A stretch of 64,000 nucleotides of DNA, taken from assembly GCF_056746865.1 (NCBI RefSeq), contig NZ_CM163382.1. The stretch is one strand, 5' to 3'. Shown here piece by piece: positions 1-32,407 of the stretch (positions are counted from its first letter, which is position 1; each line of letters begins with the position of its first letter). The position numbers and the translations under genes are program-made. The notes beneath the pieces were generated by a model that saw only the letters and a program-made list of their open reading frames with translations, made no database searches and was not told the DNA's origin.

Positions 1-114
1 GCGTATACCGGTCGTGAAGTGCAGGATATTCCCGGTGTGCTGGCCGTGTTTGCTGAACGCCGTAAGGACAGTTTTGGCCCGTATGTCCGGCTGATGAGCG
101 TCACCCTGAACTGA
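1..114 (+). CDS. yeeT: YeeT-like island protein, 3' partial (5' end lies outside the window)
   Basis: Frame open from window start to TGA at 112-114; the translated tail ...AYTGREVQDIPGVLAVFAERRKDSFGPYVRLMSVTLN matches the C-terminus of the complete copy at 29067..29288; lies directly upstream of cbeA as in CP4-44-type islands. Confidence 0.6.
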   Translation, partial: AYTGREVQDIPGVLAVFAERRKDSFGPYVRLMSVTLN

Positions 115-193
115 GTCTGGAAGGGCATTCAGAAGAGCAGAATTATCGCCACCACCGGACCATTCTTAACCAATTTTCTGTGAGGATTTTATC

Positions 194-568
194 GTGCCAG
201 ACACTCTCCCCGGGACAACGCATCCCGACGATAACAACGACCGCCCCTGGTGGGGGCTACCCTGCACCGTGACGCCCTGTTTTGGGGCACGTCTGGTGCA
301 GGAGGGTAACCGGTTGCATTACCTTGCAGACCGCGCCGGTATCAGAGGCCGGTTCAGCGACGCGGATGCGTACCATCTGGACCAGGCCTTTCCGCTGCTG
401 ATGAAACAACTGGAACTCATGCTCACCAGCGGTGAACTGAATCCCCGCCATCAGCATACCGTCACGCTGTATGCAAAAGGGCTGACCTGCAAAGCCGATA
501 CCCTCAGCAGTTGTGGTTACGTTTATATGGCTGTTTATCCGACACTGGCACCCGCAACCACCTCATAA
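194..568 (+). CDS. cbeA: CbeA/YeeU-family antitoxin (cytoskeleton bundling-enhancing factor), GTG start
   Basis: 124-aa ORF; translation (MPDTLPGTTHPDDNNDRPWWGLPCTVTPCFGARLVQEGNRLHYLADRAGIRG...) recognised from memory as YeeU/CbeA; followed by cbtA. Confidence 0.85.
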   Translation: MPDTLPGTTHPDDNNDRPWWGLPCTVTPCFGARLVQEGNRLHYLADRAGIRGRFSDADAYHLDQAFPLLMKQLELMLTSGELNPRHQHTVTLYAKGLTCKADTLSSCGYVYMAVYPTLAPATTS

Positions 569-614
569 CCCCGAATATCTCACCTTTAGCACTACCAGTT
601 ACAGAGAACTTAAG

Positions 615-992
615 ATGAAAACATTACCTGACACACACGTACGGGAGGCATCGCGCTGCCCGTCTCCCGTCACCATCTGGCAGACACTGCTCACCCGACT
701 GTTGGACCAGCATTACGGCCTCACACTGAATGACACACCGTTCGCTGATGAACGTGTGATTGAGCAGCATATTGAGGCAGGCATTTCACTGTGCGATGCG
801 GTGAACTTTCTCGTTGAAAAATACGCACTGGTACGTACCGACCAGCCAGGATTCAGCGCCTGTACCCGTTCTCAGTTAATAAACAGTATTGATATCCTCC
901 GGGCCCGCCGGGCAACCGGCCTGATGGCCCGCGACAATTACAGAACGGTAAATAACATTACCCTGGGTAAACATCCGGGGGCGAAACAATGA
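615..992 (+). CDS. cbtA: CbtA/YeeV-family toxin
   Basis: ATG at 615 inside ORF 513..992; MKTLPDTHVREASRCPSPVTIWQTLLTRLLDQHYGLTLNDTPFADERVIEQHIEAGISLCDAVNFLVEKYALVRTDQPGFS... recognised as CbtA; paired with cbeA; 4-bp overlap with the next ORF. Confidence 0.85.
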   Translation: MKTLPDTHVREASRCPSPVTIWQTLLTRLLDQHYGLTLNDTPFADERVIEQHIEAGISLCDAVNFLVEKYALVRTDQPGFSACTRSQLINSIDILRARRATGLMARDNYRTVNNITLGKHPGAKQ

Positions 993-1480
993 AACTGGCC
1001 CTGACGCTGGAAGCCGACAGCATTAACGTGCAGGCACTGAACATGGGGCGCATTGTCGTTGACGTCGATGGTGTTACTCTCGCTGAACTGATTAACGTGG
1101 TCTGCGATAACGGTTACTCCCTTCGTGTTGTTGATGAATCTGACCGGACATCAGCAGAGCGCACGCCATCATCTGCGGCGGCCCTTACCGGCATACGCTG
1201 CAGTACCGCGCATATCACGGCAAAGGACAACGCCTGGCTGTACTCGCTGTCACATCAGACGAATGGCACCGGCGAATCAGAATGGATTCATTTCACAGGT
1301 AGCGGATATCTGTTACGTACCGATGCGTGGTCATACCCGGTTCTGCGGCTTAAGCGCCTGGGCCTGTCAAAAACGTTCCGTCGTCTGGTTGTCACACTTA
1401 CCCGACGTTATGGCGTCAGTCTCATTCATCTGGATGCCAGCGCTGAATGTCTGCCGGACCTGCCCACTTTCGACTGGTAA
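989..1480 (+). CDS. yeeW: YeeW-like island protein
   Basis: 163-aa ORF translationally coupled to cbtA (ATGA overlap); position and sequence consistent with yeeW of CP4-44. Confidence 0.6.
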   Translation: MKLALTLEADSINVQALNMGRIVVDVDGVTLAELINVVCDNGYSLRVVDESDRTSAERTPSSAAALTGIRCSTAHITAKDNAWLYSLSHQTNGTGESEWIHFTGSGYLLRTDAWSYPVLRLKRLGLSKTFRRLVVTLTRRYGVSLIHLDASAECLPDLPTFDW

Positions 1481-1491
1481 CCAGGAACAAC

Positions 1492-1689
1492 ATGAAATCA
1501 TTAACCACGGAAACCGCACTGGATATTCTGATTGCGTGGCTACAGGACAATATCGACTGCGAATCGGGAATTATCTTTGACAACGATGAGGATAGAACGG
1601 ATTCGGCAGCACTGTTGCCCTGTATCGAACAGGCCAGGGAGGATATCCGTATCCTGCGCCAGTTGCAGCTTCTGCAACAGAACCGGTGA
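1492..1689 (+). CDS. small conserved hypothetical protein downstream of yeeW
   Basis: ATG at 1492 inside ORF 1447..1689 (MKSLTTETALDILIAWLQDNIDCESGIIFDNDED...); the same sequence recurs in the second copy fused in frame to yeeW (30193..30816). Confidence 0.5.
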   Translation: MKSLTTETALDILIAWLQDNIDCESGIIFDNDEDRTDSAALLPCIEQAREDIRILRQLQLLQQNR

Positions 1690-1773
1690 GTCTTACTCAC
1701 CAGACTTCATTCCACTGACGCCAGCCTGAACAGGGCTGGCGTTTTCATTTATCTGCAAAAAGGAATATCGATT

Positions 1774-2640
1774 ATGTCTGAAATCACAGCCCCCCGTCCG
1801 GAAGTGGTCAACGGGCATACGGACGTTATCGGCTCAACCAGCATCCGCCACATTCTGGCTGTACGAAAGAGTGCGCTGCTGCAAATCGACACACTTATCC
1901 GGCAACTGGCAGAAATCTCGGTGCTGACGGAAAGCATCGGAGGTAAAACTGCACTGGACTGGGCCATGAAACAGGATTTTCGCTGCGGTTGCTGGCTGAT
2001 GGAAAAACCGGAAACCGCAATGAAAGCCATCACCCGCAACCTTGACCGCGAAATCTGGCGTGATCTGATGCAACGTTCAGGGATGCTGTCATTAATGGAT
2101 GCACAAGCCCGTGATACATGGTACCGGTCACTGGAGTACGATAATTTTCCGGAAATCAGCGAAGCAAATATCCTGAGCACGTTTGAACAACTGCACCAGA
2201 ACAAAGATGAAGTGTTTGAGCGAGGGGTGCTCAACGTTTTCAGAGGACTGAGCTGGAATTACAAAACCAATTCACCCTGCAAATTTGGCAGTAAAATTAT
2301 CGTCAACAATCTGGTGAGGTGGGACCGGTGGGGGTTTCATCTTATCACCGGACAACAGGCCGATCGACTTGCCGATCTGGAAAGAATGCTGCACCTGTTC
2401 AGCGGCAAACCGATCCCCGACAACCGGGAAAACATCACCATTCATCTGGATGATCACATCCAGTCTGTTCAGGGTAAAGAGGACTATGAAGATGAGATGT
2501 TCAGCATCAGATACTTTAAGAAGGGCTCCGCGCACATCACGTTCAGGAAACCAGAGCTGGTTGACAGGCTTAATGATATTATTGCCAGACACTACCCGGA
2601 AGCCCTGGCAAGCACAGTGAACAAAAGCCGCAAGGCATAA
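1774..2640 (+). CDS. conserved island protein, possibly DUF4942 family
   Basis: 288-aa ORF; a truncated paralog (N-terminal 79 aa) is present at 30916..31155. Confidence 0.55.
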   Translation: MSEITAPRPEVVNGHTDVIGSTSIRHILAVRKSALLQIDTLIRQLAEISVLTESIGGKTALDWAMKQDFRCGCWLMEKPETAMKAITRNLDREIWRDLMQRSGMLSLMDAQARDTWYRSLEYDNFPEISEANILSTFEQLHQNKDEVFERGVLNVFRGLSWNYKTNSPCKFGSKIIVNNLVRWDRWGFHLITGQQADRLADLERMLHLFSGKPIPDNRENITIHLDDHIQSVQGKEDYEDEMFSIRYFKKGSAHITFRKPELVDRLNDIIARHYPEALASTVNKSRKA

Positions 2641-2711
2641 AAGAGGTATTTTACAATTCGCGAATATTAACTATTATTAATTGATAGCAATCAATCGGCG
2701 AGAAAATAACC

Positions 2712-2975
2712 ATGCCTACCAGTGTATCCCTCAGTCCTTACTTTGAAACGTTTATCCGCGAACAAATAGAAAGTGGTCGGTACAACAATACAAGTGAAGT
2801 CATTCGTGCCGGACTTCGTGCTCTGGAAGAACGGGAACAGCAGATAAAGCTTGAATCACTCCAGAGCGCCGTGGCCGCAGGCATCAACAGCGGTGAAAGT
2901 AAAAGTGCTGAAGAGGTATTCGGGCGACTGACGCACAAATACAAAAAGATGGCAGAAGGTGAACAGCCAATATGA
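2712..2975 (+). CDS. parD: type II antitoxin, ParD/RHH family
   Basis: 87-aa ORF (…FETFIREQIESGRYNNTSEVIRAGLRALEERE…) typical of ParD antitoxins; 4-bp ATGA overlap with the following toxin ORF. Confidence 0.75.
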   Translation: MPTSVSLSPYFETFIREQIESGRYNNTSEVIRAGLRALEEREQQIKLESLQSAVAAGINSGESKSAEEVFGRLTHKYKKMAEGEQPI

Positions 2976-3298: not shown

Positions 3299-3545
3299 AC
3301 AAAATCTGTGCGTTAACGCTCCCTAACACAGGTAGCCAGGTATTTTATAAATCTCTGTATTTTGTTGTCACTTCGATTCCGCGATTCAGCATATCGAACC
3401 AGACAAAATGATTACAACAAACCACAAGAAAGAGGGATTATAGCGTCAAAAGAATTCGAATTGCACATGGGGGCCTCATTGGTGGCCTCAAAAAGAACAA
3501 GGATAAAACAGTCGATACAAAACAATTGGTTATATAACCAGTTTC

Positions 3546-3564
3546 ATTCCGAGTCCGGGCACCA
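3546..3564 (+). repeat. 19-bp copy of the tRNA-Phe 3' end (ATTCCGAGTCCGGGCACCA): island att direct repeat, not a complete tRNA
   Basis: Exact match to the 3' terminal 19 nt of E. coli tRNA-Phe including CCA; upstream sequence does not match the rest of the tRNA; integrase gene begins about 200 bp downstream. Confidence 0.7.
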
Positions 3565-3576
3565 AATTCATATAAA

Positions 3577-3761: not shown

Positions 3762-5027
3762 ATGGCACTGACTGACGCAAAAATCCGGGCTGCAAAGCAC
3801 ACTGACAAGGCTTATAAACTCACTGACGGGGCTGGCATGTTCCTGCTGGTACATCCTAATGGTTCCCGTTACTGGCGTCTCCGTTATCGCATTCTGGGTA
3901 AGGAGAAAACTCTGGCACTTGGTGTATACCCGGAGGTTTCTCTCTCCGAAGCTCGTACAAAACGGGATGAGGCCCGAAAACTGATTTCGGAGGGGATTGA
4001 CCCTTGCGAACAGAAAAGAGCTAAAAAAGTAGTCCCTGATTTACAACTCTCTTTTGAACATATCGCACGACGCTGGCATGCCAGTAATAAACAATGGGCA
4101 CAATCACACAGCGATAAGGTACTCAAAAGCCTCGAAACACACGTTTTCCCCTTTATCGGCAACCGGAACATCACAACACTCAATACCCCGGACCTGCTTA
4201 TCCCTGTTCGTGCTGCAGAAGCTAAACAAATTTATGAAATCGCCAGTCGTCTGCAGCAAAGAATATCTGCTGTAATGCGTTATGCCGTACAGTCTGGCAT
4301 CATCAGATATAATCCTGCTCTGGATATGGCTGGCGCATTGACCTCTGTAAAACGACAGCATCGCCCCGCTCTTGATCTTTCACGTCTGCCTGAACTTCTG
4401 TCGCGTATTAACAGTTATAAAGGTCAGCCTGTCACCCGGCTTGCTGTTATGCTGAATTTACTGGTTTTTATTCGCTCCAGTGAACTCAGATATGCCCGCT
4501 GGGCTGAAATTGATATTGACAATTCAATGTGGACTATTCCAGCCGAACGCAAACCTCTGCCAGGGGTAAAATTCTCACACCGGGGCTCCAAGATGCGAAC
4601 ACCACATCTTGTGCCACTCAGCAAACAGGCTGTAGCCATACTGACAGAACTTCAGACATGGGCTGGTGAAAATGGTCTGATCTTTACGGGAGCACATGAC
4701 CCGCGTAAACCAATCAGTGAAAATACCGTAAATAAGGCCCTCAGAGTGATGGGGTATGACACAACCAAGGAAGTCTGTGGCCATGGATTCCGGGCGATGG
4801 CGTGCAGTGCATTGATTGAATCCGGCTTATGGTCAAGAGATGCGGTTGAACGTCAGATGAGTCATCAGGAGCGCAACGGAGTACGTGCCGCGTATATTCA
4901 TAAAGCAGAACATCTGGAAGAACGTCGGCTTATGCTGCAATGGTGGGCAGATTTTCTGGATGCAAACAGGGAGGAGTGTATCAGTCCGTTTGAATATGCA
5001 AAAGTTAACAATCCACTGAAAAGGTGA
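3762..5027 (+). CDS. int: tyrosine recombinase / P4-type phage integrase
   Basis: 421-aa ORF; N-terminus MALTDAKIRAAKHTDKAYKLTDGAGMFLLVHPNGSRYWRLRYR... is the characteristic P4-integrase N-terminal domain; C-terminal catalytic region present (…HGFRAMA…); lies next to the tRNA-Phe att repeat. Confidence 0.9.
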   Translation: MALTDAKIRAAKHTDKAYKLTDGAGMFLLVHPNGSRYWRLRYRILGKEKTLALGVYPEVSLSEARTKRDEARKLISEGIDPCEQKRAKKVVPDLQLSFEHIARRWHASNKQWAQSHSDKVLKSLETHVFPFIGNRNITTLNTPDLLIPVRAAEAKQIYEIASRLQQRISAVMRYAVQSGIIRYNPALDMAGALTSVKRQHRPALDLSRLPELLSRINSYKGQPVTRLAVMLNLLVFIRSSELRYARWAEIDIDNSMWTIPAERKPLPGVKFSHRGSKMRTPHLVPLSKQAVAILTELQTWAGENGLIFTGAHDPRKPISENTVNKALRVMGYDTTKEVCGHGFRAMACSALIESGLWSRDAVERQMSHQERNGVRAAYIHKAEHLEERRLMLQWWADFLDANREECISPFEYAKVNNPLKR

Positions 5028-8495: not shown

Positions 8496-8522
8496 AATAA
8501 ATCACCTTACAGTTACAACAGG

Positions 8523-8966: not shown

Positions 8967-11033
<2,067 letters not shown>

Positions 11034-13434: not shown

Positions 13435-13641
13435 ATGACCCCCCCAGTTTCACTGATGGATGACCAGATGGTCGACATGGCGTTTATCACTCAACTGACT
13501 GGCCTGACCGATAAGTGGTTTTACAAACTCATCAGGGATGGGGCCTTTCCGGCCCCCATCAAGCTGGGCCGCAGTTCCCGCTGGCTGAAAAGTGAAGTGG
13601 AAGCCTGGCTGCAGGCGCGTATTGCACAGTCCCGTCCGTAA
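13435..13641 (+). CDS. alpA: AlpA-family prophage transcriptional regulator
   Basis: ATG at 13435 within ORF 13381..13641; …MAFITQLTGLTDKWFYKLIRDGAFPAPIKLGRSSRWLKSEVEAWL… is the characteristic AlpA/MerR-like HTH. Confidence 0.7.
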   Translation: MTPPVSLMDDQMVDMAFITQLTGLTDKWFYKLIRDGAFPAPIKLGRSSRWLKSEVEAWLQARIAQSRP

Positions 13642-17761: not shown

Positions 17762-17786
17762 ATTCACCCTCTGTAAGGAAAAGCTG

Positions 17787-18515
17787 ATGAAACGACATCT
17801 GAACACCAGCTACAGGCTGGTATGGAATCACATTACGGGTACCCTGGTGGTGGCCTCCGAACTGGCCCGCTCACGGGGAAAACGCGCCGGTGTGGCGATT
17901 GCGCTGTCTCTTGCTGCTGTCACATCAGTCCCGGCACTGGCTGCTGACACGGTTGTACAGGCGGGAGAAACCGTGAGCGGCGGAACACTGACAAATCATG
18001 ACAACCAGATTGTATCCGGAACAGCTGATGGCGTGACTGTCAGTACCGGGCTTGAGCTGGGGCCGGACAGTGACGAAAACACCGGCGGGCAATGGATAAA
18101 AGCGGGTGGCACAGGCAGAAACACCACTGTCACCGCAAATGGTCGTCAGATTGTGCAGGCAGGAGGAACTGCCAGTGATACGGTTATTCGTGATGGCGGA
18201 GGGCAGAGCCTTAACGGACTGGCGGTGAACACCACGCTGGATAACAGAGGTGAGCAGTGGGTACACGGGGGAGGGAAAGCTGCCGGTACAATTATTAACC
18301 AGGATGGTTACCAGACCATAAAACATGGCGGACTGGCAACCGGAACCATCGTCAACACCGGTGCAGAAGGTGGTCCGGAGTCTGAAAATGTGTCCAGCGG
18401 TCAGATGGTCGGAGGGACGGCTGAATCCACCACCATCAACAAAAATGGCCGGCAGGTTATCTGGTCTTCGGGGATGGCACGGGACACCCTCATTTACGCC
18501 GGTGGTGACCAGACT
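17787..18515 (+). pseudogene. flu: antigen 43 (Ag43) autotransporter, 5' portion interrupted by an IS
   Basis: MKRHLNTSYRLVWNHITGTLVVASELARSRGKRAGVAIALSLAAVTSVPALAADTVVQ… matches the Ag43 signal peptide and passenger domain; identity ends at …YAGGDQT where IS sequence begins. Confidence 0.85.
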
Positions 18516-18716
18516 GCAAAATGGCATCTGAATCGATCGCAGTTTGGCATTCGAATCGATCATGATTTGGCATCCATCTCCGATCACAGTTTGGCATCAC
18601 AATCGATCACGATTTGGCATGCTTCCGATCATTGATTGGCATCCTGCCAGTCACTCCGGGAATTAACTCTTTTCACCACAGTCTCCATTGCCGTGTTTAA
18701 ACCAGTGGAGACGTCA

Positions 18717-20282
18717 ATGTCCAGAAAGAGAAAATCCAGGAGCACTATGGAAACCTGTTTTAAGATTCTTCAGCTCAAGTTCGACAAGAAGCTGACTAAC
18801 CGTTGTATCGGACTGACGTTACACATCAGCGCCTCAACCGTTTTTGAGGTTCTTGCCCGCTTCAAAGCCTCTTCTCTGTCATGGCCATTACCTGCTGATA
18901 TATCCCATGACACGCTGGAGAAACTCATTTTTCCGCCCAAAGACACCTTTGCATCAGAGCTTGTAATGCCTGACATGTTGTACCTCGATACGGAAATGAG
19001 AAAACCAGGTGTGACGCGGCAACTGTTGTGGATGGAATACAAGGCACAGGCGGGTAACAAAGCGATGGGATACTCGCACTTCTGCCGTTGCTACCGGGAG
19101 TGGAAAAAAACGCGACGTCTCTCCATGCGCCAGGAGCATCGTGCCGGCGAAAAGCTTTTTATCGACTTCTGTGGTCCTACGGTTCCTGTTATTAATCCGG
19201 ACACCGGTGAGATACGCCGCGTGGCAATCTTCGTGGCCGTAATGGGGGCGTCCAACTATACCTACGTTGAAGCGTGCGAAGGTCAGGACATGATGTCATG
19301 GTTAAATGCCCACAGCCGTTGCCTGACCTTCCTGGGCGGCGTACCGAAGCTGCTCATCCCCGATAACCTCAGAAGCGCAGTGAAAAAGGCCGATCGATAT
19401 GAGCCTGTCATCAACGACAGTTATCAGGCACTGGCTGAGCACTATGGCACGGTTATCATCCCGGCCCGACCACGCAAACCTAAAGATAAACCAAAAGCAG
19501 AAAACGGCGTCCTCATCGTCGAACGATGGCTTCTTGCCCGCATCCGTAATGAAACCTTCCACACGCTCAGGGCGCTGAATGCGCGCCTTAGGGAGTTACT
19601 GACAGACATGAATAACCGGCCAATGAAGGGGTACGGCAATCAAACCCGTGCAGAACGCTTCCGCATACTGGATGCGCCAGCACTCTCTCCGCTGCCTCTG
19701 GCACCTTATGAATACACGGAATACAAAGCTGTGAAGGTTGGCCCTGACTACCACGTTGAATATGCCCGTCACTGGTACTCCGTTCCACACGAACTGGTCG
19801 GTCAGCGTCTGTCACTGAAGGCGGGGCAGTCGGTGGTACAGCTCTGGCACAAGGGGCAGTGTGTGGCGCAACATCCGCGCAGCACACATGAATATAAACA
19901 CACAACCAATCCGCTTCACATGCCAGAGCGCCACCGGCAGCACGGGACATGGACACCGGAACGCCTGATCGAGCAGGGAAAACGTACGGGCCCGTCCACA
20001 GGCCGGGTGGTTGAATCCATGCTGAAGGCAAAACCCCATCCGGAACTGGCTTATCGTGCAGTTCTGGGGCTGCTGGCACTTCAGAAAAAATACGGCCCGG
20101 AACGGCTGGAAAAGGCCTGTTACGTTGCCCTGCACTATAACGCCCCTGACAGACGCTTTATCGACAATCTGCTGCGTCACCATCGGGAGAACCTGGAGCT
20201 TCCATTATCCCGCCAGGGCGAACAACATCCGGCATATGCTTCAGAGCATGAAAACCTGCGTGGTCCGGGCTACTACCACTGA
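18717..20282 (+). CDS. istA: IS21-family transposase IstA
   Basis: Large ORF 18636..20282 with integrase-core features (…LFIDFCGPTVPV…); the start codon is uncertain (18636, 18717 or 18747). Confidence 0.75.
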   Translation: MSRKRKSRSTMETCFKILQLKFDKKLTNRCIGLTLHISASTVFEVLARFKASSLSWPLPADISHDTLEKLIFPPKDTFASELVMPDMLYLDTEMRKPGVTRQLLWMEYKAQAGNKAMGYSHFCRCYREWKKTRRLSMRQEHRAGEKLFIDFCGPTVPVINPDTGEIRRVAIFVAVMGASNYTYVEACEGQDMMSWLNAHSRCLTFLGGVPKLLIPDNLRSAVKKADRYEPVINDSYQALAEHYGTVIIPARPRKPKDKPKAENGVLIVERWLLARIRNETFHTLRALNARLRELLTDMNNRPMKGYGNQTRAERFRILDAPALSPLPLAPYEYTEYKAVKVGPDYHVEYARHWYSVPHELVGQRLSLKAGQSVVQLWHKGQCVAQHPRSTHEYKHTTNPLHMPERHRQHGTWTPERLIEQGKRTGPSTGRVVESMLKAKPHPELAYRAVLGLLALQKKYGPERLEKACYVALHYNAPDRRFIDNLLRHHRENLELPLSRQGEQHPAYASEHENLRGPGYYH

Positions 20283-20298
20283 CAGAAGGAACAACAGT

Positions 20299-21054
20299 AT
20301 GAGTGATAACCTGTTAAACAAACTGACCCAACTGAAACTCCCGGCGATGGCCGGGAGCCTGATACGGCAGCGGGAAACGCCTCAGACCTACGACGAACTG
20401 TCGTTCGAGGAAAGGCTGACGCTGCTGGTTGATGACGAGCTTCTGAGCAGGGAAAACAGCCGTGTGGCACGGTTGAGAAAAAATGCCGGCCTGAAATACC
20501 AGGCAACACCGGAAGGGCTGCGCTATCCGGCCTCAAGAGGTCTGCGGGCTGAACAGATGAGAGAACTGCTGAACGGCCACTACATAACCCACAGGAAAAA
20601 CCTGCTGATAACCGGTCCGACAGGATGTGGCAAGAGCTGGATAGCCAATGCGCTGGGCGAACAGGCATGTCGACAGAAACACAGCGTCCGGTACTGTAGA
20701 ACCGGGCGATTACTGGAACAACTGGCTCAGGGACGTGTTGATGGCAGCTGGCTGAAATATCTGAAACAGTTGCAAAAAATACAGGTTCTAATCCTGGACG
20801 ATCTGGGGCTGGAACAGTTAAGTAACGCCCAGTGTAATGACCTTCTGGAGCTCATAGAGGATCGTTACGGACAAAGCAGCACGATAGTGGTAAGCCAGTT
20901 CCCGGTAGATAAATGGCATGGTCTGATGGAGAACCCAACAACAGCAGATGCCATCCTGGACAGACTGGTACATAACTCACACCGGGTGGTCCTTCAGGGA
21001 GAGTCACTGAGGAAAAATCCCCCGGTAGTGGAAAGCAGCGAAAAAACGCGTTAA
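20299..21054 (+). CDS. istB: IS21-family helper ATPase IstB
   Basis: 251 aa from the ATG at 20299; Walker A GPTGCGKSW and Walker B VLILDDLG. Confidence 0.85.
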   Translation: MSDNLLNKLTQLKLPAMAGSLIRQRETPQTYDELSFEERLTLLVDDELLSRENSRVARLRKNAGLKYQATPEGLRYPASRGLRAEQMRELLNGHYITHRKNLLITGPTGCGKSWIANALGEQACRQKHSVRYCRTGRLLEQLAQGRVDGSWLKYLKQLQKIQVLILDDLGLEQLSNAQCNDLLELIEDRYGQSSTIVVSQFPVDKWHGLMENPTTADAILDRLVHNSHRVVLQGESLRKNPPVVESSEKTR

Positions 21055-21144
21055 AAAGCGGTAGAAAAAGTTAAGTTCCCGGTTGATCGAATGGATGCGA
21101 ATCGCTGATCGGACTTCGATGCCAATCCGTGATCGAATAGAGCG

Positions 21145-23554
21145 GAATACGCACCAGACGGTACACGGAGAGGCACATAACACCCGACTGGAGGGGGGTA
21201 ACCAGTATGTACACAACGGTGGCACGGCAACAGAGACGCTGATAAACCGTGATGGCTGGCAGATGATTAAGGAAGGAGGAACTGCCGCGCATACCACCAT
21301 CAACCAGAAAGGAAAGCTGCAGGTGAATGCCGGCGGTAAAGCGTCTGATGTCACCCAGAACACGGGCGGTGCACTGGTTACCAGTACAGCTGCAACCGTC
21401 ACCGGCACAAACCGCCTGGGAGCATTCTCCGTTGTGGCGGGTAAGGCTGATAATGTCGTACTGGAAAATGGCGGACGTCTGGATGTGCTGAGCGGACACA
21501 CAGCCACTAATACCCGTGTGGATGATGGCGGAACGCTGGATGTCCGCAACGGTGGTGCCGCCACCACCGTATCCATGGGGAATGGCGGTGTACTGCTGGC
21601 CGATTCCGGTGCCGCTGTCAGTGGTACCCGGAGCGACGGAACGGCATTCCATATCGGAGGCGGTCAGGCGGATGCCCTGATGCTGGAAAAAGGCAGTTCA
21701 TTCACGCTGAACGCCGGTGATACGGCCACGGATACCACGGTAAATGGCGGATTGTTCACTGCCAGAGGGGGCTCGCTGGCGGGCACCACCACGCTGAATA
21801 ACGGTGCCACGCTTATCCTTTCCGGGAAAACGGTAAATAACGATACCCTGACCATCCGTGAAGGTGATGCACTCCTGCAGGGAGGCGCTCTTACCGGTAA
21901 CGGCAGGGTGGAAAAATCAGGAAGTGGCACACTCACTGTCAGCAACACCACACTCACCCAGAAAACCGTCAACCTGAATGAAGGCACGCTGACGCTGAAC
22001 AACAGTACCGTCACCACGGATGTCATCGCTCAGCGCGGCACGGCCCTGAAGCTGACCGGCAGCACAGTGCTGAACGGTGCCATTGACCCCACGAATGTCA
22101 TCCTGACATCCGGTGCCACCTGGAATATCCCCGATAACGCCACGGTTCAGTCGGTGGTGGATGACCTCAGCCATGCCGGACAGATTCATTTCACCTCCGC
22201 CCGCACAGGGAAGTTCGTTCCGACAACTCTGCAGGTGAAAAACCTGAACGGGCAGAATGGCACCATCAGCCTGCGTGTACGCCCGGATATGGCGCAGAAC
22301 AATGCTGACAGACTGGTCATTGACGGTGGCAGGGCAACCGGAAAAACCATCCTGAATCTGGTGAACGCCGGCAACAGTGGTACGGGGCTGGCGACCACCG
22401 GTAAGGGTATTCAGGTGGTTGAGGCCATTAACGGTGCCACCACGGAGGAAGGGGCTTTTGTCCAGGGGAATATGTTGCAGGCCGGGGCCTTTAACTACAC
22501 CCTCAACCGGGACAGTGATGAGAGCTGGTATCTGCGCAGTGAAGAACGTTATCGTGCTGAAGTCCCCCTGTACGCCTCCATGCTGACACAGGCAATGGAC
22601 TATGACCGGATTCTGGCAGGCTCCCGCAGCCATCAGACCGGTGTAAACGGTGAAAATAACAGCGTCCGTCTCAGCATTCAGGGCGGCCATCTCGGTCACG
22701 ATAACAACGGCGGTATTGCCCGTGGGGCCACGCCGGAAAGCAGCGGCAGCTATGGCTTCGTCCGTCTGGAGAGTGACCTGCTCAGAACAGAGGTCGCCGG
22801 TATGTCACTGACGACAGGAGTGTATGGTGCTGCAGGCCATTCTTCCGTTGATGTTAAGGATGATGACGGCTCCCGCGCCGGCACGGTCCGGGATGATGCC
22901 GGCAGCCTGGGCGGATATATGAACCTGACACACACCTCCTCCGGCCTGTGGGCTGACATTGTGGCACAGGGAACCCGCCACAGTATGAAAGCGTCATCGG
23001 GCAATAACGACTTCCGCGCACGGGGCTGGGGCTGGCTGGGCTCACTGGAAACCGGTCTGCCCTTCAGTATCACTGACAACCTGATGCTGGAGCCACGGCT
23101 GCAGTACACCTGGCAGGGGCTTTCGCTGGATGACGGTAAGGACAACGCCGGTTATGTGAAGTTCGGGCATGGCAGTGCACAACATGTGCGTGCCGGTTTC
23201 CGTCTGGGCAGCCACAACGATATGACCTTTGGTGAAGGCACCTCATCCCGTGCCCCCCTGCGTGACAGTGCAAAACACAGTGTGCGTGAACTGCCGGTGA
23301 ACTGGTGGGTACAGCCTTCCGTTATCCGCACCTTCAGCTCCCGGGGTGATATGCGTGTGGGGACCTCCACCGCAGGCAGCGGGATGACGTTCTCACCCTC
23401 ACAGAATGGCACTTCACTGGATCTGCAGGCAGGACTGGAAGCCCGTGTCCGGGAAAATATCACCCTGGGCGTTCAGGCCGGTTATGCCCACAGCGTCAGC
23501 GGCAGCAGCGCTGAAGGCTATAACGGTCAGGCCACGCTGAATGTGACCTTCTGA
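21145..23554 (+). pseudogene. flu: antigen 43 (Ag43) autotransporter, 3' portion (rest of passenger domain plus beta-barrel)
   Basis: Reading frame resumes with …HQTVHGEAHNTRLEGGNQYVHNGGTATE… and continues to the canonical autotransporter C-terminus …GYNGQATLNVTF. Confidence 0.85.
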
Positions 23555-26721: not shown

Positions 26722-27110
26722 TCCCTGAAGTCAGTTTCATGCTTCAGCCTCTGCCACAACGTATGGCAGAGGCTATTTATCAGGAGAAACCAGATATGCC
26801 GGGTTACACACAGAGTATGTCCTGGCTGAAGGATCTTTCTCATACGGGCAGGCGGTTGCTGTCATAACAGCTTACCGCAATGTGTTTACTGAAGATGACC
26901 AGGGAACATATTCCCGGCTGGTTATCCGTAATGCTGAAGGTCAGTTGCGCTGGTGATGCCGGAACACAGCTTAATACTCAGCTCGCCAGTTAAGGGCTTC
27001 TCAGACAATAAACGTCATTCATTTCATCTGTCAGGCCGCGTCTTCTCCGGGAGACGTGGCTTTTTCATTTATTACACCAGTAAATCTTAACCACCGATAA
27101 GGAGCAAATT

Positions 27111-27929
27111 ATGCGACTAGCCAGTCGTTTTGGTTATGCGAACCAGATACGCCGTGACCGTCCGCTGACACACGAAGAACTGATGCACCATGTACCGGGT
27201 ATTTTCGGTGAAGACCGGCATACCTCCCGCAGTGAACGCTATACGTACATCCCCACCATCACCGTACTGGAAAGCCTGCAGCGGGAAGGCTTTCAGCCAT
27301 TCTTCGCCTGCCAGACCCGCGTACGTGACCCGGACCGCCGGGAATACACCAAACACATGCTGCGTCTGCGGCGGGCCGGAGAGATAAACGGAGAACATGT
27401 CCCTGAAATTATTCTGCTCAACTCTCATGACGGTACCTCCAGCTACCAGATGCTGCCGGGTTACTTCAGGTTCGTCTGCCAGAACGGATGCGTCTGTGGT
27501 CAGTCTCTGGGGGAAGTGCGTGTTCCGCACCGGGGAAATGTGGTGGAGAAAGTTATTGAAGGGGCTTACGAGGTGGTGGGGGTTTTTGACCGGATTGAGG
27601 AAAAGCGTGATGCCATGCAGTCGCTGATTCTGCCGCCACCGGCACGCCAGGCGCTGGCACAGGCGGCACTGACTTACCGTTATGGTGACGAACATCAGCC
27701 CGTCACCACCGCCGACATTCTGACACCACGACGCCGGGAGGATTACGGTAAGGACCTGTGGAGTGCTTATCAGACCATTCAGGAGAATATGCTGAAAGGC
27801 GGAATTTCCGGTCGCAGTGCCAGAGGAAAACGTATCCATACCCGTGCCATTCACAGCATCGACACCGACATTAAGCTCAACCGCGCATTGTGGGTGATGG
27901 CTGAAACGCTGCTGGAGAGTATGCGCTGA
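27111..27929 (+). CDS. conserved island protein (YfjQ-like, possibly DUF932 family)
   Basis: 272-aa ORF; occupies the position of the yfjQ/ykfC-type gene in CP4-type islands. Confidence 0.55.
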   Translation: MRLASRFGYANQIRRDRPLTHEELMHHVPGIFGEDRHTSRSERYTYIPTITVLESLQREGFQPFFACQTRVRDPDRREYTKHMLRLRRAGEINGEHVPEIILLNSHDGTSSYQMLPGYFRFVCQNGCVCGQSLGEVRVPHRGNVVEKVIEGAYEVVGVFDRIEEKRDAMQSLILPPPARQALAQAALTYRYGDEHQPVTTADILTPRRREDYGKDLWSAYQTIQENMLKGGISGRSARGKRIHTRAIHSIDTDIKLNRALWVMAETLLESMR

Positions 27930-28020
27930 TGCCGTTTCCCTGAAAGCGCAGTTCTGACTCACGTCTGTCCCTTCCCCCGGGGTTTCTTCCATTCATTTAC
28001 TTTTTATAAGGAATAATCTC

Positions 28021-28506
28021 ATGACAACCGTCTTGCATAATTCCACCACTCCTTCTGTTTCCGTAACCGCTGCATCAGGGAATGACCAGCCTCAGCTGGT
28101 TGCCACCATAGTCCCTGATGAACAGCGCATCAGCTTCTGGCCGCAGCACTTTGGCCTCATTCCACAGTGGGTGACCCTGGAGCCCCGTGTCTTCGGCTGG
28201 ATGGACCGTCTGTGCGAAGACTACTGCGGTGGTATCTGGAATCTGTACACCCTGAACAACGGCGGGGCATTTATGGCACCCGAACCGGATGACGATGATG
28301 ACGAAAACTGGGTACTGTTCAATGCCATGAACGGTAACCGCGCTGAAATGAGCCCGGAAGCCGCCGGCATTGCCGCCTGTCTGATGACGTACAGTCATCA
28401 TGCCTGTCGTACGGAGTGTTATGCCATGACGATCCATTATTACCGGTTGCGGGATTACGCCCTGCAGCATCCGGAATGCAGCGCCATTATGCGCATCATC
28501 GACTGA
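28021..28506 (+). CDS. antirestriction protein (KlcA/ArdB-like; YfjX/YafX family)
   Basis: 161 aa; acidic patch PEPDDDDDENW and family-typical context directly upstream of radC. Confidence 0.65.
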   Translation: MTTVLHNSTTPSVSVTAASGNDQPQLVATIVPDEQRISFWPQHFGLIPQWVTLEPRVFGWMDRLCEDYCGGIWNLYTLNNGGAFMAPEPDDDDDENWVLFNAMNGNRAEMSPEAAGIAACLMTYSHHACRTECYAMTIHYYRLRDYALQHPECSAIMRIID

Positions 28507-28998
28507 ATGGAGAGAAGCACAATGCAACAACTTTCCTTTCTGCCCGGAGAGATGACGCCCGGCGAGCGCAGTCTCATTCTGCGGGCCCTGAAAACCCTGG
28601 ACCGCCATCTTCATGAACCCGGCGTGGCCTTCACCTCCACCCGTGCGGCACGGGAATGGCTGATTCTGAACATGGCGGGACTGGAGCGTGAAGAGTTCCG
28701 GGTACTGTATCTGAACAACCAGAATCAGCTGATTGCCGGTGAAACCCTCTTCACCGGCACCATCAACCGCACGGAAGTCCATCCCCGGGAAGTGATTAAA
28801 CGCGCCCTGTACCACAATGCCGCCGCCGTGGTACTGGCACACAATCACCCGTCCGGTGAAGTCACCCCCAGTAAGGCAGACCGCCTTATCACGGAACGTC
28901 TGGTACAGGCACTGGCCCTGGTGGATATCCGGGTACCGGACCATCTGATAGTTGGTGGCAGTCAGGTTTTCTCCTTTGCGGAACACGGTCTGCTTTAA
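28507..28998 (+). CDS. yeeS: RadC-like JAB-domain protein (YeeS/YfjY/YkfG family)
   Basis: 163 aa; JAMM-like motif HNHPSGEVTPSKAD. Confidence 0.8.
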   Translation: MERSTMQQLSFLPGEMTPGERSLILRALKTLDRHLHEPGVAFTSTRAAREWLILNMAGLEREEFRVLYLNNQNQLIAGETLFTGTINRTEVHPREVIKRALYHNAAAVVLAHNHPSGEVTPSKADRLITERLVQALALVDIRVPDHLIVGGSQVFSFAEHGLL

Positions 28999-29066
28999 CC
29001 CGTCACCGTCACAACCACATCACACCTGTTTTCACTTTTATCTTCTGTCTTCAGAGGTATCCCATT

Positions 29067-29288
29067 ATGAAAATCATCACCCGTGGTGAAGCCATGCGTA
29101 TTCACCAACAGCATCCTGCATCCCGTCTATTTCCGTTCTGCACCGGTAAGTACCGCTGGCACGGCAGTGCTGAGGCGTATACCGGTCGTGAAGTACAGGA
29201 TATTCCCGGTGTGCTGGCCGTGTTTGCTGAACGCCGTAAGGACAGTTTTGGCCCGTATGTCCGGCTGATGAGCGTCACCCTGAACTGA
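29067..29288 (+). CDS. yeeT: YeeT-like island protein
   Basis: 73 aa; complete copy of the partial gene at 1..114. Confidence 0.7.
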   Translation: MKIITRGEAMRIHQQHPASRLFPFCTGKYRWHGSAEAYTGREVQDIPGVLAVFAERRKDSFGPYVRLMSVTLN

Positions 29289-29361
29289 GTGGGAATTCTG
29301 ATGAGCAGAATTATCGCCAATACCGGAGCATTCTTAGCCGATTTTCTGTAGGGATTTTATC

Positions 29362-29730
29362 GTGTCAGACACACTCCCCGGGACAACACTTCCCGACGAC
29401 AATCACGACCGCCCCTGGTGGGGGCTGCCCTGCACCGTGACGCCCTGTTTCGGGGCACGTCTGGTGCAGGAGGGTAACCGGTTGCATTACCTTGCCGACC
29501 GCGCCGGTATCAGAGGCCTGTACAGCAATGCAGATGCGTACCACCTGGACCAGGCCTTTCCGCTGCTGATGAAACAACTGGAACTCATGCTCACCAGCGG
29601 TGAACTGAATCCCCGCCATCAGCATACCGTCACGCTGTATGCAAAAGGGCTGACCTGCAAAGCCGATACCCTCAGCAGTTGTGGTTACGTTTATCTGGCT
29701 GTTTATCCGACGCCCGAAATGAAAAATTAA
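29362..29730 (+). CDS. cbeA: CbeA/YeeU-family antitoxin, second copy (GTG start)
   Basis: 122 aa; MSDTLPGTTLPDDNHDRPWWGLPCTVTPCFGARLVQEGNRLHYLADRAGIRG…; near-identical to 194..568. Confidence 0.85.
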   Translation: MSDTLPGTTLPDDNHDRPWWGLPCTVTPCFGARLVQEGNRLHYLADRAGIRGLYSNADAYHLDQAFPLLMKQLELMLTSGELNPRHQHTVTLYAKGLTCKADTLSSCGYVYLAVYPTPEMKN

Positions 29731-29818
29731 CTCTCCAGAATAGCCTTCTGCTACGGCCTGGTGTTTTCACCACGCCACTTTCCCATTTTTATATCTGCAT
29801 ATCAGGAAAATCTTCAGT

Positions 29819-30196
29819 ATGAAAACATTACCTGTATTACCCGGGCAGGCGGCCAGTTCTCGCCCGTCTCCTGTTGAAATCTGGCAGATACTTCTGTCCC
29901 GACTGCTGGACCAGCACTACGGCCTCACACTGAATGACACACCGTTTGCCGATGAACGTGTGATCGAGCAGCATATTGAGGCAGGCATTTCACTGTGTGA
30001 TGCGGTGAACTTTCTCGTGGAAAAATACGCGCTGGTGCGTACCGACCAGCCGGGATTCAGCGCCTGTACCCGCTCTCAGTTAATAAACAGCATCGATATC
30101 CTCCGGGCTCGCAGGGCGACCGGCCTGATGACCCGCGACAATTACAGAACGGTAAATAATATTATCCTGGGTAAGCACCCGGAGGTGAAACAATGA
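29819..30196 (+). CDS. cbtA: CbtA/YeeV-family toxin, second copy
   Basis: 125 aa; near-identical to 615..992. Confidence 0.85.
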   Translation: MKTLPVLPGQAASSRPSPVEIWQILLSRLLDQHYGLTLNDTPFADERVIEQHIEAGISLCDAVNFLVEKYALVRTDQPGFSACTRSQLINSIDILRARRATGLMTRDNYRTVNNIILGKHPEVKQ

Positions 30197-30816
30197 AACT
30201 TTCCCTGACGCCGGAAGCCGACAGCGTTAACGTACAGGCACTGAATATGGGGCGCATTGTCGTTGACGTCGATGGTATTAATCTCGCTGAACTGATTAAC
30301 AAGGTCGCTGAAAACGGTTATTCACTCCGCGTGGTGGATGAATCTGACCAACAGTCAACCTGCACTCCACAACCGTTTACGACTCTTTCCGGCATACGCT
30401 GCAGTACCGCACATATCACGGAAAAGGACAACGCCTGGCTGTACTCGCTGTTACACCAGACCAGTGACTTTGGTGAATCAGAATGGATTCATTTTACCGG
30501 TACCGGTTATCTGTTACGTTCCGTCGTCTGGTCGTCACACTCATCCGGCGTTATGGTGTCAGTCTCATTCATCTGGATGCCAGTGCCAGATGTCTGCCAG
30601 GTTTACCCACTTTCGACTGGTAATCCGGAAATTCACAACATGAAATCATTAACCACGGAAACAGCGCTGGATATTCTGATTACGTGGCTGCAGGACAATA
30701 TCGACTGCGAATCGGGAATTATCTTCGACAACGATGAGGATAAAACAGATTCGGCAGCACTGTTGCCCTGTATCGAACAGGCCAGGGAGGGTATCCGTAC
30801 CCTGCGCCAACAGTAA
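30193..30816 (+). CDS. yeeW: YeeW-like protein fused in frame to the small downstream protein (deletion variant)
   Basis: 207-aa ORF; relative to copy 1 a stretch of about 58 bp is missing in the yeeW 3' region, placing yeeW and the MKSLTTETALDIL… ORF in one frame. Confidence 0.5.
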   Translation: MKLSLTPEADSVNVQALNMGRIVVDVDGINLAELINKVAENGYSLRVVDESDQQSTCTPQPFTTLSGIRCSTAHITEKDNAWLYSLLHQTSDFGESEWIHFTGTGYLLRSVVWSSHSSGVMVSVSFIWMPVPDVCQVYPLSTGNPEIHNMKSLTTETALDILITWLQDNIDCESGIIFDNDEDKTDSAALLPCIEQAREGIRTLRQQ

Positions 30817-30915
30817 CTTTTGCACCAGAACCAGTGAAGATCACTCACCCGATTTCACTTCCCTGACGTCAGCCTGAACACGGCTGGCGTTTTCATTTAT
30901 AAACAGAAAGGAAAA

Positions 30916-31155
30916 ATGATGATGTCAGATACCACACACTCCCGCCCGGAGGTGGTGAGCGGGCATACGGACGTTATCTATTCCACCTCAGTCTGCCACA
31001 TTCTGGCTGTACGAAAAAGTATACTGCTGCAAATCGACACACTTATCCGGCAACTGGCTGAAATCTCAGTTCTGACGGAAAGCATTGGAGGTAAAACCGG
31101 CCTGAACTGGTCGAGAAAGCAGGGTTTTCGCTGCGGTTGTTGGCTGATTGAGTAA
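30916..31155 (+). pseudogene. truncated copy of the DUF4942-like island gene (N-terminal 79 codons)
   Basis: Homology to 1774..2640 ends at about 31180, where the kpsS 3' end begins. Confidence 0.55.
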
Positions 31156-31177
31156 CCTGAAACGCCCATGAAAACCA

Positions 31178-32407
31178 TCATCTGCTACCGTTTAGGAATG
31201 CGGACCTTCTATTGCTTTTTGATTTTACACCATAATAAACAGCATTAATTTGCGTCTTCATCAATAAATATTCACGAAACTTCTTAAACAGTTTCATATC
31301 TGGTTTAAAATCGGCCTGCCAGAATTGGTGCAAATGCCCTTGATACGTCAACCCCTTGATGTCGTACAGAGCATTACCCATCACTTTGAGTGGTTTGTTA
31401 TGAATCAGTGCAGAGATCCCCACTGTACTGTTAATTGTCACAACCGCTTTTGCATGGCGTAATAATTCCGGCATTGGGAGATCGTGTACGTATATGACTC
31501 GCTCGCCTAAGCCATATTCCTTACTCAACCGCTTAATTAATGGTCGATAGAGTCTGTGACCGCGATCCATCGGATGGTGTTTGATCACCAAATAACTCTC
31601 TTTCGGTGCCTTATGCGAAAATGAATATACAACTTCGTTAATATAATCACGCACATCATTATAATTACTGTGATTACGAATTTGGCTATCATTATAAACT
31701 TGTAAAATAACAAGATAGTAACGTTGGTCCAGATCATTCACTAACCGAGCCAATACATTACGTTGCATTATTTTGTAAAATAGCTTACGCCAGTACGCAC
31801 GCCCCCAGCAACGAGCCTCATACCAAGGAGAAAATGATTTGTGATGACGGTAGCGAGTGAATTCATGTCGGTAATGCCATCCCATCAGGTAATACCACAT
31901 TGCATGACCAATACGTTTCATCGTCGAGGGTTTTAAGTTCTCAACATGTGGTGCAGGCATATCTGGTAATTTACGATAAAAGTCAGGATCGCGCGGCAGC
32001 GATGAATACGCGTTTACACCGTCCTCTTCAACAGTAATAAATTGCGGACGTAAATATCCTTCTTCAAATGCCAGAAAGCGGATCCCTTTAGACTTCGCCC
32101 AACGTTTTGCTTCTTTGTGCAATGGACGGCAGTCACCAAAACAGAGAATGGTATCAAAGTCAAATTGCCGGTGGATATCTCGTAACCAACCAGGAAATTC
32201 TTTCGGCGTTTGGTAATAAGCCAGATAGTGTCGATGACGGCAGTAAAAACGATCTCCTCCATTGAATACAACATTCACAGCGTTACGACCTAATGACTCT
32301 AACCACTCGGCAACATCATTGAAGAAAGGTCCCATCGGTCCCTGCAATAGCAGATATTTTTTACCAGATAATAAAATGCTCAGAGCATTATTTTTCATAA
32401 TAATCAA
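31178..32407 (-). CDS. kpsS: capsule polysaccharide biosynthesis protein KpsS
   Basis: 409 aa; …LLSGKKYLLLQGPMGPFF…LAFEEGYLRP… recognised as KpsS. Confidence 0.85.
   Translation of the reverse strand: MIIMKNNALSILLSGKKYLLLQGPMGPFFNDVAEWLESLGRNAVNVVFNGGDRFYCRHRHYLAYYQTPKEFPGWLRDIHRQFDFDTILCFGDCRPLHKEAKRWAKSKGIRFLAFEEGYLRPQFITVEEDGVNAYSSLPRDPDFYRKLPDMPAPHVENLKPSTMKRIGHAMWYYLMGWHYRHEFTRYRHHKSFSPWYEARCWGRAYWRKLFYKIMQRNVLARLVNDLDQRYYLVILQVYNDSQIRNHSNYNDVRDYINEVVYSFSHKAPKESYLVIKHHPMDRGHRLYRPLIKRLSKEYGLGERVIYVHDLPMPELLRHAKAVVTINSTVGISALIHNKPLKVMGNALYDIKGLTYQGHLHQFWQADFKPDMKLFKKFREYLLMKTQINAVYYGVKSKSNRRSAFLNGSR

Follow-up and report, generated by a model that had tools for sequence, protein, structure and literature searches.

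The whole 64,000-nt stretch analysed here (the window) contains two copies of one gene module in the same orientation, the first at the left edge and the second beside a capsule locus. The segments to which the copies belong are referred to as island A and island B, and their features are given below in order along the window. The encoded proteins all belong to well-known families.

1..2032 (+): copy 1, terminal 'yee module' of island A (blastn repeat, Pfam); all genes intact, left end cut off by the window edge
1-114 (+): 3' end of yeeT/DUF987, copy 1
194-568 (+): cbeA-like gene, copy 1 (Pfam CbeA_antitoxin)
615-992 (+): cbtA-like gene, copy 1 (Pfam CbtA_toxin)
989-1480 (+): DUF5983/yeeW, copy 1 (Pfam DUF5983_N and C)
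1492-1689 (+): DUF957-type ORF, copy 1, named from the RefSeq annotation of relatives, with no Pfam match
1774-2640 (+): DUF4942 gene, copy 1 (Pfam); homology to copy 2 stops at about 2032
2712-2975 (+): parD (TIGR02606 ParD), forming a type II toxin-antitoxin pair with parE
2972-3298 (+): parE (PF05016 ParE_toxin), partner of parD
3546..3564 (+): att remnant, the exact 19-nt pheV tRNA-Phe 3' end ATTCCGAGTCCGGGCACCA
3762..5027 (+): P4-type tyrosine integrase gene intP4, intact, 421 aa (Arm-DNA-bind_3, Phage_int_M, Phage_integrase)
9404..10661 (+): IS3-family insertion sequence (NF033516), missing from M21170, with a 3-nt overlap at the junction
13435..13641 (+): AlpA-family HTH gene, a candidate excision or regulatory factor (PF05930 Phage_AlpA, 35.7 bits)
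17787..23554 (+): flu/Ag43 autotransporter gene, IS-interrupted (NF033177 auto_Ag43)
18515-21152: IS21-family element within flu, a 2.64-kb insertion relative to M21170 (NF033546, NF038214)
18636-20282: istA of the IS21-family element
20056-21054: istB of the IS21-family element
26828..29174 (+): island B side of the leftward continuation of the repeat, from the DUF905 region through the 5' part of yeeT; its counterpart in island A is outside the window, to the left
27111-27929 (+): DUF932 gene (Pfam)
28021-28506 (+): antirestriction gene (Pfam)
28522-28998 (+): RadC gene (Pfam)
29067-29288 (+): yeeT, copy 2
29175..31180 (+): copy 2, terminal 'yee module' of island B (blastn repeat, Pfam)
29362-29730 (+): cbeA, copy 2
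29819-30196 (+): cbtA, copy 2
30193-30623 (+): DUF5983 gene, copy 2, frameshifted by a 58-bp deletion
30640-30816 (+): DUF957-type ORF, copy 2
30916-31155 (+): DUF4942 fragment of 79 codons, copy 2
31178..32407 (-): kpsS, first capsule-locus gene (NF050054 KpsS family; score of 396.8 bits, under the equivalog cutoff of 600 bits)

Within the 64-kb window, the two copies are recovered by blastn as a same-orientation direct repeat (1-2032 versus 29175-31180) that is divided into three block pairs: 1-543 = 29175-29711, 658-1322 = 29862-30523 and 1373-2032 = 30516-31180. The identity of these blocks is 93.7%, 87.1% and 85.1%, respectively, with E = 0 in all three cases, which is far beyond chance. 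A global alignment of the copies yields 86.5% identity with 108 gap columns, the indels include 6, 28, 7, 58 and 5 bp, and the cbeA-cbtA spacer region is only about 55% identical. The longest perfect tract spans 150 bp (377-526 = 29545-29694) and the second-longest 95 bp (22-116 = 29196-29290), while every other tract between 1-2032 and 29175-31180 is at most 44 bp long. The cbeA and cbtA genes are adjacent in both copies, antitoxin first (PF06154, 179.5 and 176.6 bits; PF06755, 212 and 195 bits), and their products are 94% (CbeA) and 88% (CbtA) identical between the copies; both copies carry CbtA/CbeA type IV toxin-antitoxin genes with predicted activity. An initial sequence-only reading had described a near-identical repeat at 1-2035 and 29175-31180. 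Its orientation and coordinates agree with blastn, but the block and global values are too low for a near-identical repeat, which would agree at about 99% or more across hundreds to thousands of bp. Its module genes (yeeT, cbeA, cbtA, yeeW, a small ORF and the start of the DUF4942 gene) are confirmed by Pfam and annotation, and its content of the interval of about 29.2 kb, namely the integrase, IS3- and IS21-family elements, an AlpA-family gene and flu, is likewise correct.

The left end of the repeat is the window edge and not a biological boundary. According to the proxy genomes H106 and M21170, homology to island B runs about 2.35-2.5 kb further left (window 26828-29174) at about 92%, with 91.9% identity to the H106 island A over 2.9 kb and 92.1% to the M21170 island A over 2.5 kb. 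The complete module follows the order DUF905, DUF932, antirestriction, RadC, DUF987/yeeT, CbeA-CbtA type IV toxin-antitoxin, DUF5983/yeeW, DUF957-type ORF and DUF4942. With its extent taken from the proxy genomes and not from the source genome, the full repeat would measure about 4.4 kb at 89-90% identity; as measured on a proxy island A, it contains 41 perfect tracts of at least 25 bp, 12 of which reach at least 50 bp. The island A of H106 is 99.94% identical to window 1-3600, and the region has been rearranged by IS26 in that genome.

The feature that divides the interval is the att remnant at 3546-3564, which is located between parDE, the rightmost genes of island A, and the integrase gene of island B and was recognised through comparison with TUM20902. 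It fits the 19-bp attR class TTTCATTCCGA(G/T)TCCGGGCACCA in Table 1 of PMC11537424 and has a double function, as attR for island A and as attL for island B. TUM20902 and many other genomes have pheV connected without interruption to the sequence that starts at window 3543, with 100% identity, so that island A is missing precisely at att. The integrase gene of island B is found 198 bp after pheV in TUM20902 and is 100% identical to the window, which places a P4-like tyrosine integrase immediately downstream of the tRNA-Phe 3' end. No tRNA gene was found in the 64-kb window, and neither was any further att or attR, even when the search took in the variant with a 1-nt deletion from PMC11537424; no tRNA body is attached to the 19-nt att, and no attR is present between island B and kpsS or further right in the window. 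Island B, which extends over about 27.6 kb from its integrase to the truncated DUF4942 gene that abuts kpsS, is thus flanked by a single att copy in 64 kb instead of a pair of attL and attR direct repeats. The junction of truncated DUF4942 and kpsS is kept in 101 genomes.

For island A, the right end together with att shows 99.9% identity in the 40 genomes listed and at least 99% in at least 133 genomes. Because strain R2 carries the island A end and att at pheU, adjoining cadC, island A is a discrete tRNA-Phe-targeting element; its right end is bounded by a tRNA-Phe 3'-end repeat and it occurs as a unit at tRNA-Phe loci. The tandem A-att-B-kps layout is carried independently by M21170, the only member of the complete-genome set that covers at least 80% of window 1-12000 (98.6% identity). 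This genome has an IS66-family insertion in the integrase gene and contains a different island A variant, which extends more than 48 kb upstream of the module without reaching pheV and resembles the 536-type island in its pgt and pix-like fimbrial genes.

The window covers neither the left part of island A nor the integrase of that island nor pheV, and the tandem structure is therefore inferred from H106, R2 and M21170. Read in this way, the two copies very probably represent a conserved 'yee module' that forms the end of each of two different P4-integrase-type islands, which follow one another at the tRNA-Phe gene pheV. In the order of integration that we infer, island B would be the older resident, whose integrase normally lies directly after pheV. 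An old deletion would have removed its right end including attR and fused the truncated DUF4942 gene to kpsS, and because of this loss island B would be unable to excise on its own. Island A would have integrated later, site-specifically, into the 3' end of pheV, regenerating pheV on its left, outside the window, and leaving the 19-nt att at 3546-3564.

Such an arrangement can be compared with the GI-pheV islands, which are modular and have flu and yee modules in common with other islands and CP4-44 (PMC11537424; Nhu et al., 2024, PLoS Genet). The flu and yee modules display a high SNP density that was attributed to recombination, the direct repeats of GI-pheV are 19 or 23 bp long, and 14 of 41 islands lack attR, are shorter and are thought to be stabilised by deletion (PMC11537424). 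The window resembles this family in the P4-type integrase directly after pheV, the 19-bp att of the TTTCATTCCGA.TCCGGGCACCA type, the combination of flu with yee modules, and an island B that has no attR and is short compared with the mean of 23.5 kb in that paper. It differs in that two islands are stacked, with the yee module present twice in direct orientation, and in that the att is a perfect 19-mer in contrast to the T-substituted attR of most intP4.1 islands. A term search of PMC11537424 for the word 'tandem' returned no occurrence.

Two other explanations for the repeat have to be weighed against the tandem-island reading. A segmental duplication in situ, in which one ancestral module was copied locally and the copies diverged in place, would account for the same orientation and gene order of two modules 29 kb apart on one chromosome. 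However, copy 2 has yeeT-cbeA-cbtA alleles that are 96-100% identical to K-12 CP4-44, while copy 1 represents a different allele set and is closest to the pheU islands of other strains (99.9%), so that each copy is nearer to an outside relative than to its counterpart. Because of these separate affinities, duplication in place is excluded; an att site and an integrase gene also separate the copies, and many genomes have island B without island A. On these sequence comparisons, the proposal appears effectively refuted, and its probability is very slight. In K-12, the cryptic prophage CP4-44 (yeeS-yeeT-cbeA-cbtA-yeeW, flu, IsrC; paralogous modules in CP4-6 and CP4-57) shows the same gene order and has the IS102/IsrC sRNA upstream of flu in common with the window, but it is not located at pheV and is truncated after yeeW, whereas the modules of the window go on into DUF957 and DUF4942 and, for island A, also parDE. 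The second explanation, that two islands were mis-joined through their shared module during assembly, draws on the fact that repeats of 2-4 kb at about 90% identity can confuse short-read assemblers and that the source genome is not among the complete genomes compared. It is contradicted by the position of the junction, which lies outside the repeat at an att flanked by unique ParE and integrase sequence, by the presence of the same ParDE-att-integrase junction in 204 complete genomes and by the comparable tandem in M21170; an artefact is accordingly most improbable.

If the modules are the ends of two islands, the question remains of what a crossover between them would do. The geometry proposed by the sequence-only reading is sound: a crossover between the copies would delete about 29.2 kb (29,168 bp if it fell within the 150-bp tract) and join island A to kpsS. 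Along with parDE and the att remnant, the predicted deletion would take out the integrase of island B, alpA, the two IS elements and the flu gene that one of them disrupts. What that reading missed is that the copies would be terminal modules of two tRNA-Phe islands divided by an att site. It had also named an identity too low for homologous recombination as grounds for its own rejection; with 41 tracts of at least 25 bp in the extended repeat, one of them of 150 bp, the alignment does not strictly show this, although the premise of near-identity was wrong.

It is conceivable, but improbable, that the repeat is chiefly an active substrate for homologous recombination, excising the segment of about 29 kb at a biologically meaningful frequency and leaving island A joined to the capsule locus. 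Both copies point in one direction, perfect tracts of 150 and 95 bp and the further tracts of the extended repeat are available, and at least one perfect tract exceeds the MEPS (about 25-30 bp; at most 30 bp in bacteria, PMC8918686). In addition, a crossover in the 150-bp tract is predicted to leave an intact chimeric cbeA beside the cbtA of copy 2, and a mosaic in strain 203740 shows past recombination of these modules. On the other side, identity is only 85-94%, no Chi site is present in either copy, and effective initiation sites are computed at about 12-16% of the number in a 2-kb repeat free of mismatches, a figure that does not yet include mismatch-repair editing. Recombination declines exponentially with divergence through MutS/L (PMC8918686). 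Among 5,426 complete E. coli genomes, two chimera searches detected no deletion product at any crossover position and no A/B chimera beside kpsS: the best match to the 150-bp-tract chimera (99.1%) equals unrecombined copy 2, and the general chimera reached best scores of 4635-4677 bits versus the 4665 expected for copy 2. This absence has low power and is weak evidence on the rate of deletion, because only one genome (M21170) has the full A-B-kps tandem. Searches of the literature on yeeU/yeeV with homologous recombination and of an E. coli PAI review returned nothing specific on module-mediated deletions.

The variants that are seen in the population are distinguished by the state of the att site or by patches within the module, and not by this deletion. 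In the presence/absence polymorphism, island A has been lost or gained with the att site as the exact boundary. Within the module of strain 203740, a patch of about 1.2 kb has 75-92% identity, and the sequence to the right of the patch, up to and including kpsS, is 97.5-100% identical; this is recombination without deletion. Historical recombination in the yee module shows up as replacement of allele patches and not as deletion. The 150-bp tract was considered as a recent A/B gene conversion in this genome, which was rejected since the same island A (99.9%) occurs in single-module genomes such as R2 and the tract is common to CP4-44; it was also considered as a universally conserved segment, which was rejected since strain 203740 is only about 87% identical there. 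Because it is common to K-12 CP4-44, the tract predates the tandem arrangement, and its perfect conservation in islands A and B and CP4-44 shows that sequence exchange among these modules happens.

Homeologous direct repeats are reportedly stabilised by mismatch repair, a result credited to Shen and Huang in 1986 and to Vulic et al. in 1997. The present copies resemble such systems as diverged repeats with islands of perfect identity (Radman, 2022, PMC8918686), and by analogy rare crossovers would fall in the longest identity block, with MutS/L aborting most attempts. Because the copies are 85-94% identical with a 150-bp tract and dozens of tracts of at least 25 bp, RecA exchange between them could start but would be strongly disfavoured by mismatch-repair editing, and the usual outcome would be short conversion or allele-replacement patches and not a 29-kb deletion. 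That toxin-antitoxin genes can stabilise integrated mobile elements is an established concept. Here, parDE at the end of island A falls inside the interval that a crossover would delete, cbeA/cbtA in each module lies inside that interval or borders it, and these loci may have a role in island retention; loss of parDE should penalise deletants through post-segregational toxicity and be counter-selected. An easier route to structural change would be the removal of island A by an integrase, with pheV and the att remnant as end points.

The layout is an already described E. coli island arrangement (Nhu et al., 2024) and not a ready-made deletion switch. The main value of the analysis is this correction: the apparent switch is an end-module common to two separate mobile islands that are stacked at pheV. 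For annotation pipelines, island boundaries belong at the 19-nt att remnant and not at the repeat. The loss of attR has fixed island B to the capsule locus, whereas island A remains the potentially mobile unit. Regional instability should be looked for first at att sites and second in rare, mismatch-repair-limited exchange between modules. A more speculative and rather doubtful proposal is that yee modules act as portable homology cassettes, through which stacked tRNA-Phe islands exchange or consolidate cargo: now and then a crossover in a perfect tract common to the modules, for instance the 150-bp tract in cbeA, would fuse the body of one island to the anchored end of another, and toxin-antitoxin genes (cbeA/cbtA, parDE) would decide which recombinants survive. 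If this were true, the tandem array would be a stage on the way to new composite islands beside the capsule locus.

The sequence-only reading described the yee modules at the two ends of this segment as a near-identical direct repeat, and a self-blastn search of the window recovers the repeat as three collinear blocks at the same positions, with a similarity far beyond chance but well short of near-identity.

Repeat blocks between copy A (copy 1, 1-2032) and copy B (copy 2, 29175-31180), self-blastn
1-543 = 29175-29711, block 1, 93.7% identity
658-1322 = 29862-30523, block 2, 87.1% identity
1373-2032 = 30516-31180, block 3, 85.1% identity

The nucleotide alignment that the same reading had proposed was run globally over the whole copies and yields 86.5% identity with 108 gap columns, the indels including 6, 28, 7, 58 and 5 bp. 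The longest perfect tract spans 150 bp within cbeA (377-526 = 29545-29694), the second covers 95 bp at the yeeT 3' end (22-116 = 29196-29290), and all remaining tracts of the 2-kb repeat are at most 44 bp long. The 150-bp tract directly adjoins a hypervariable stretch of ~55% identity with 28-bp and 7-bp indels, comprising the CbeA C-terminus, the cbeA-cbtA spacer and the CbtA N-terminus (543-660 vs 29711-29862), so that identity changes very abruptly within one toxin-antitoxin operon. The gene content had been named correctly: Pfam assigns the CbeA antitoxin, the CbtA toxin, DUF5983 (yeeW) and DUF4942 to both copies, with DUF987 (yeeT) on the left, while the small ORF after DUF5983 has no Pfam match in either copy and is named DUF957 in the RefSeq annotation of relatives. 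Protein identities between the copies are 94% for CbeA, 88% for CbtA, 76% for DUF5983, 93% for the DUF957-type ORF and 81% for the DUF4942 N-terminus. All genes of copy A are intact; in copy B, the 58-bp deletion shifts the reading frame of DUF5983, and DUF4942 ends after ~79 codons, right against kpsS. The shifted DUF5983 frame gives a 207-codon ORF (30193-30816) that reads on in the frame of the DUF957-type gene behind it.

The modules belong to two different islands. Numerous complete E. coli genomes match the window at 100% identity, but only from 3543 on; in one of these, TUM20902, the tRNA-Phe gene pheV lies immediately upstream and the match to the window begins inside the pheV 3' end. 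At 3546-3564 (ATTCCGAGTCCGGGCACCA) the pheV 3' end recurs exactly over 19 nt, while the remainder of the tRNA is missing; this copy fits the 19-bp attR class in the published table of GI-pheV islands (PMC11537424), and a search including attR variants found no second att copy in the 64-kb window. The pheV-end match and the single att copy thus identify the window as the right end of island A, an att junction and island B, in this order.

Features of the two islands
1 to ~3545, right end of island A, yee module then parDE
2712-3298, parDE type II toxin-antitoxin, last genes of island A, ~250 bp short of the att remnant
3762-5027, intact P4-type integrase, first gene of island B
9404-10661, IS3-family element, island B
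13435-13641, AlpA-family gene, island B
17787-23554, flu/Ag43 autotransporter gene, split by an IS21-family element (18515-21152)

Other genomes show island A to be a discrete element. Across all 40 genomes listed, its right end together with att is conserved at 99.9% identity, and at least 133 genomes carry it at ≥99%; a ParDE-att-integrase junction like that of the window is found in 204. Strain R2 carries island A at the other tRNA-Phe gene, pheU, beside cadC, and M21170 represents an independent instance of the tandem A-att-B-kps layout. From its location, parDE would suit a role in stabilising island A against excision or deletion. In H106 (L003) and R2 (L008), island A carries a multidrug-resistance region with sul2, aph(3'')-Ib, aph(6)-Id, tet(A), floR and IS26, and the H106 locus has been rearranged by IS26 copies, which also truncated the integrase downstream. 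The stretch at 3543-3678, which consists of the tRNA-Phe 3' end and the 113 nt downstream of it, has a match beside a tRNA-Phe gene in nearly every E. coli genome (K-12 ~95.6%), so that the arm of island B next to the integrase resembles K-12 sequence downstream of tRNA-Phe; the island may carry a native terminator, or all strains may retain a remnant of an old island.

The left end of the repeat is a window artefact. H106 carries an island A with 99.94% identity to window 1-3600, and the H106 sequence upstream of its module still matches island B (window 26828-29711, 91.9% over 2.9 kb); M21170 shows the same leftward continuation (92.1% over 2.5 kb). Taken from these proxy genomes rather than the source genome, the full repeat would therefore measure about 4.4 kb at ~89-90% identity. 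The extended repeat comprises the DUF905 region, DUF932, antirestriction, RadC, DUF987, cbeA, cbtA, DUF5983, the DUF957-type ORF and a DUF4942 fragment, with 41 perfect tracts ≥25 bp, 12 ≥50 bp and one ≥100 bp in the proxy genomes.

At its right edge, island B has DUF4942 truncated at ~31180 against kpsS (junction 31155-31181), followed by a group-3-type capsule locus and the core yghD/gsp genes. This junction, found in 101 complete genomes with at least two module allele classes, is the scar of an old deletion through which attR was lost and island B became fixed to the capsule locus. The far end of this locus has a JUMPstart element (59566-59604, minus strand) in the interval from the capsule export genes to yghD. 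Within island B, the IS3-family element, which contains an Rfam isrC match (RF01387, 9472-9594), is absent from M21170 and shows a 3-nt junction overlap of the kind that an IS3-type target duplication would leave. An Rfam IS102/IsrC sRNA (17532-17768) precedes flu, as in the CP4-44 prophage of K-12. The 2.64-kb IS21-family element in flu (istA 18636-20282, istB 20056-21054) is missing in M21170 and, judging by length, also in CB6886; overlap at the aligned junctions points to a target duplication of ~7 bp. Between flu and the IrmA/DUF905 region, a large gene (23669-26190) is split into two ORFs of 499 and 344 aa, and its M21170 equivalent is annotated as a frameshifted hypothetical protein.

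An in-situ duplication is ruled out as the origin of the copies, as copy B is 96-100% identical to the CP4-44 alleles of K-12 across yeeT-cbeA-cbtA and copy A represents another allele set, with relatives at pheU in other strains (99.9% identical). In the simplest history, island B would have resided first at pheV with attR already lost, and island A would afterwards have integrated in the 3' end of pheV, so that the 19-nt att came to separate the islands; the attR loss is placed before the arrival of island A because the DUF4942/kpsS junction is so widely shared. This history fits the description of GI-pheV islands as modular, with flu and yee modules common to islands and CP4-44, att repeats of 19 or 23 bp, and short islands that lack attR, presumably stabilised by ancestral deletions (Nhu et al., 2024; PMC11537424). 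The structure is of a known kind: stacked GI-pheV-type islands with a common yee module.

Excision of ~29 kb by recombination between the copies, fusing the left island to the capsule locus, had been predicted. The geometry is right and such recombination is possible in principle, but the nature of the repeat had been missed and the event is probably rare. Bacterial MEPS are at most 30 bp, crossovers favour the longest identity block, and recombination frequency falls linearly with shrinking identity length and exponentially with divergence via MutS/L editing (PMC8918686). A crossover in the 150-bp tract would remove 29,168 bp and create an intact cbeA chimera beside the copy B cbtA. By a simple MEPS count, with mismatch repair still left out of account, the copies offer only 12-16% of the initiation sites that a 2-kb repeat of full identity would have, both copies lack a Chi site, and loss of parDE would be expected to penalise deletants; together with the divergence subject to MutS/L editing, this makes frequent deletion unlikely. 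Among 5,426 complete genomes, a search of limited power since only M21170 has the full tandem layout, the best match to the 150-bp-tract product (99.1%) is exactly the value of unrecombined copy B, and a general chimera of whole copy A plus the kpsS flank scores at best 4635-4677 bits vs 4665 expected for copy B. These copy B-level scores indicate that no A/B recombinant lies next to kpsS in this set.

Traces of smaller exchanges are present. Strain 203740 (L004) carries island B with the same kpsS junction (22071-22097) and a ~1.2-kb patch (20158-21358 vs window ~29290-30440; cbeA, cbtA, yeeW 5' part) of 75-92% identity, flanked on the right by 97.5-100% identity through kpsS and on the left by already patchy sequence (86-99.5% across DUF932-RadC-yeeT). 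The patch is an allele replacement or gene conversion without deletion. It is a fine-scale mosaic, nearer copy B in the cbeA-cbtA spacer and nearer copy A at A-positions 630-680. The 150-bp tract itself, common to A, B and CP4-44, is ruled out as a recent conversion in this genome; its presence in CP4-44 and in the island A copies of single-module genomes, and the only ~87% identity of 203740 there, point to an older shared allele patch. Such a patch history is in line with Nhu et al. (PMC11537424), who attribute the high SNP density found in yee modules to recombination. Change at this locus is more likely to come from site-specific gain or loss of island A at the att sites and from small conversion patches within the module.
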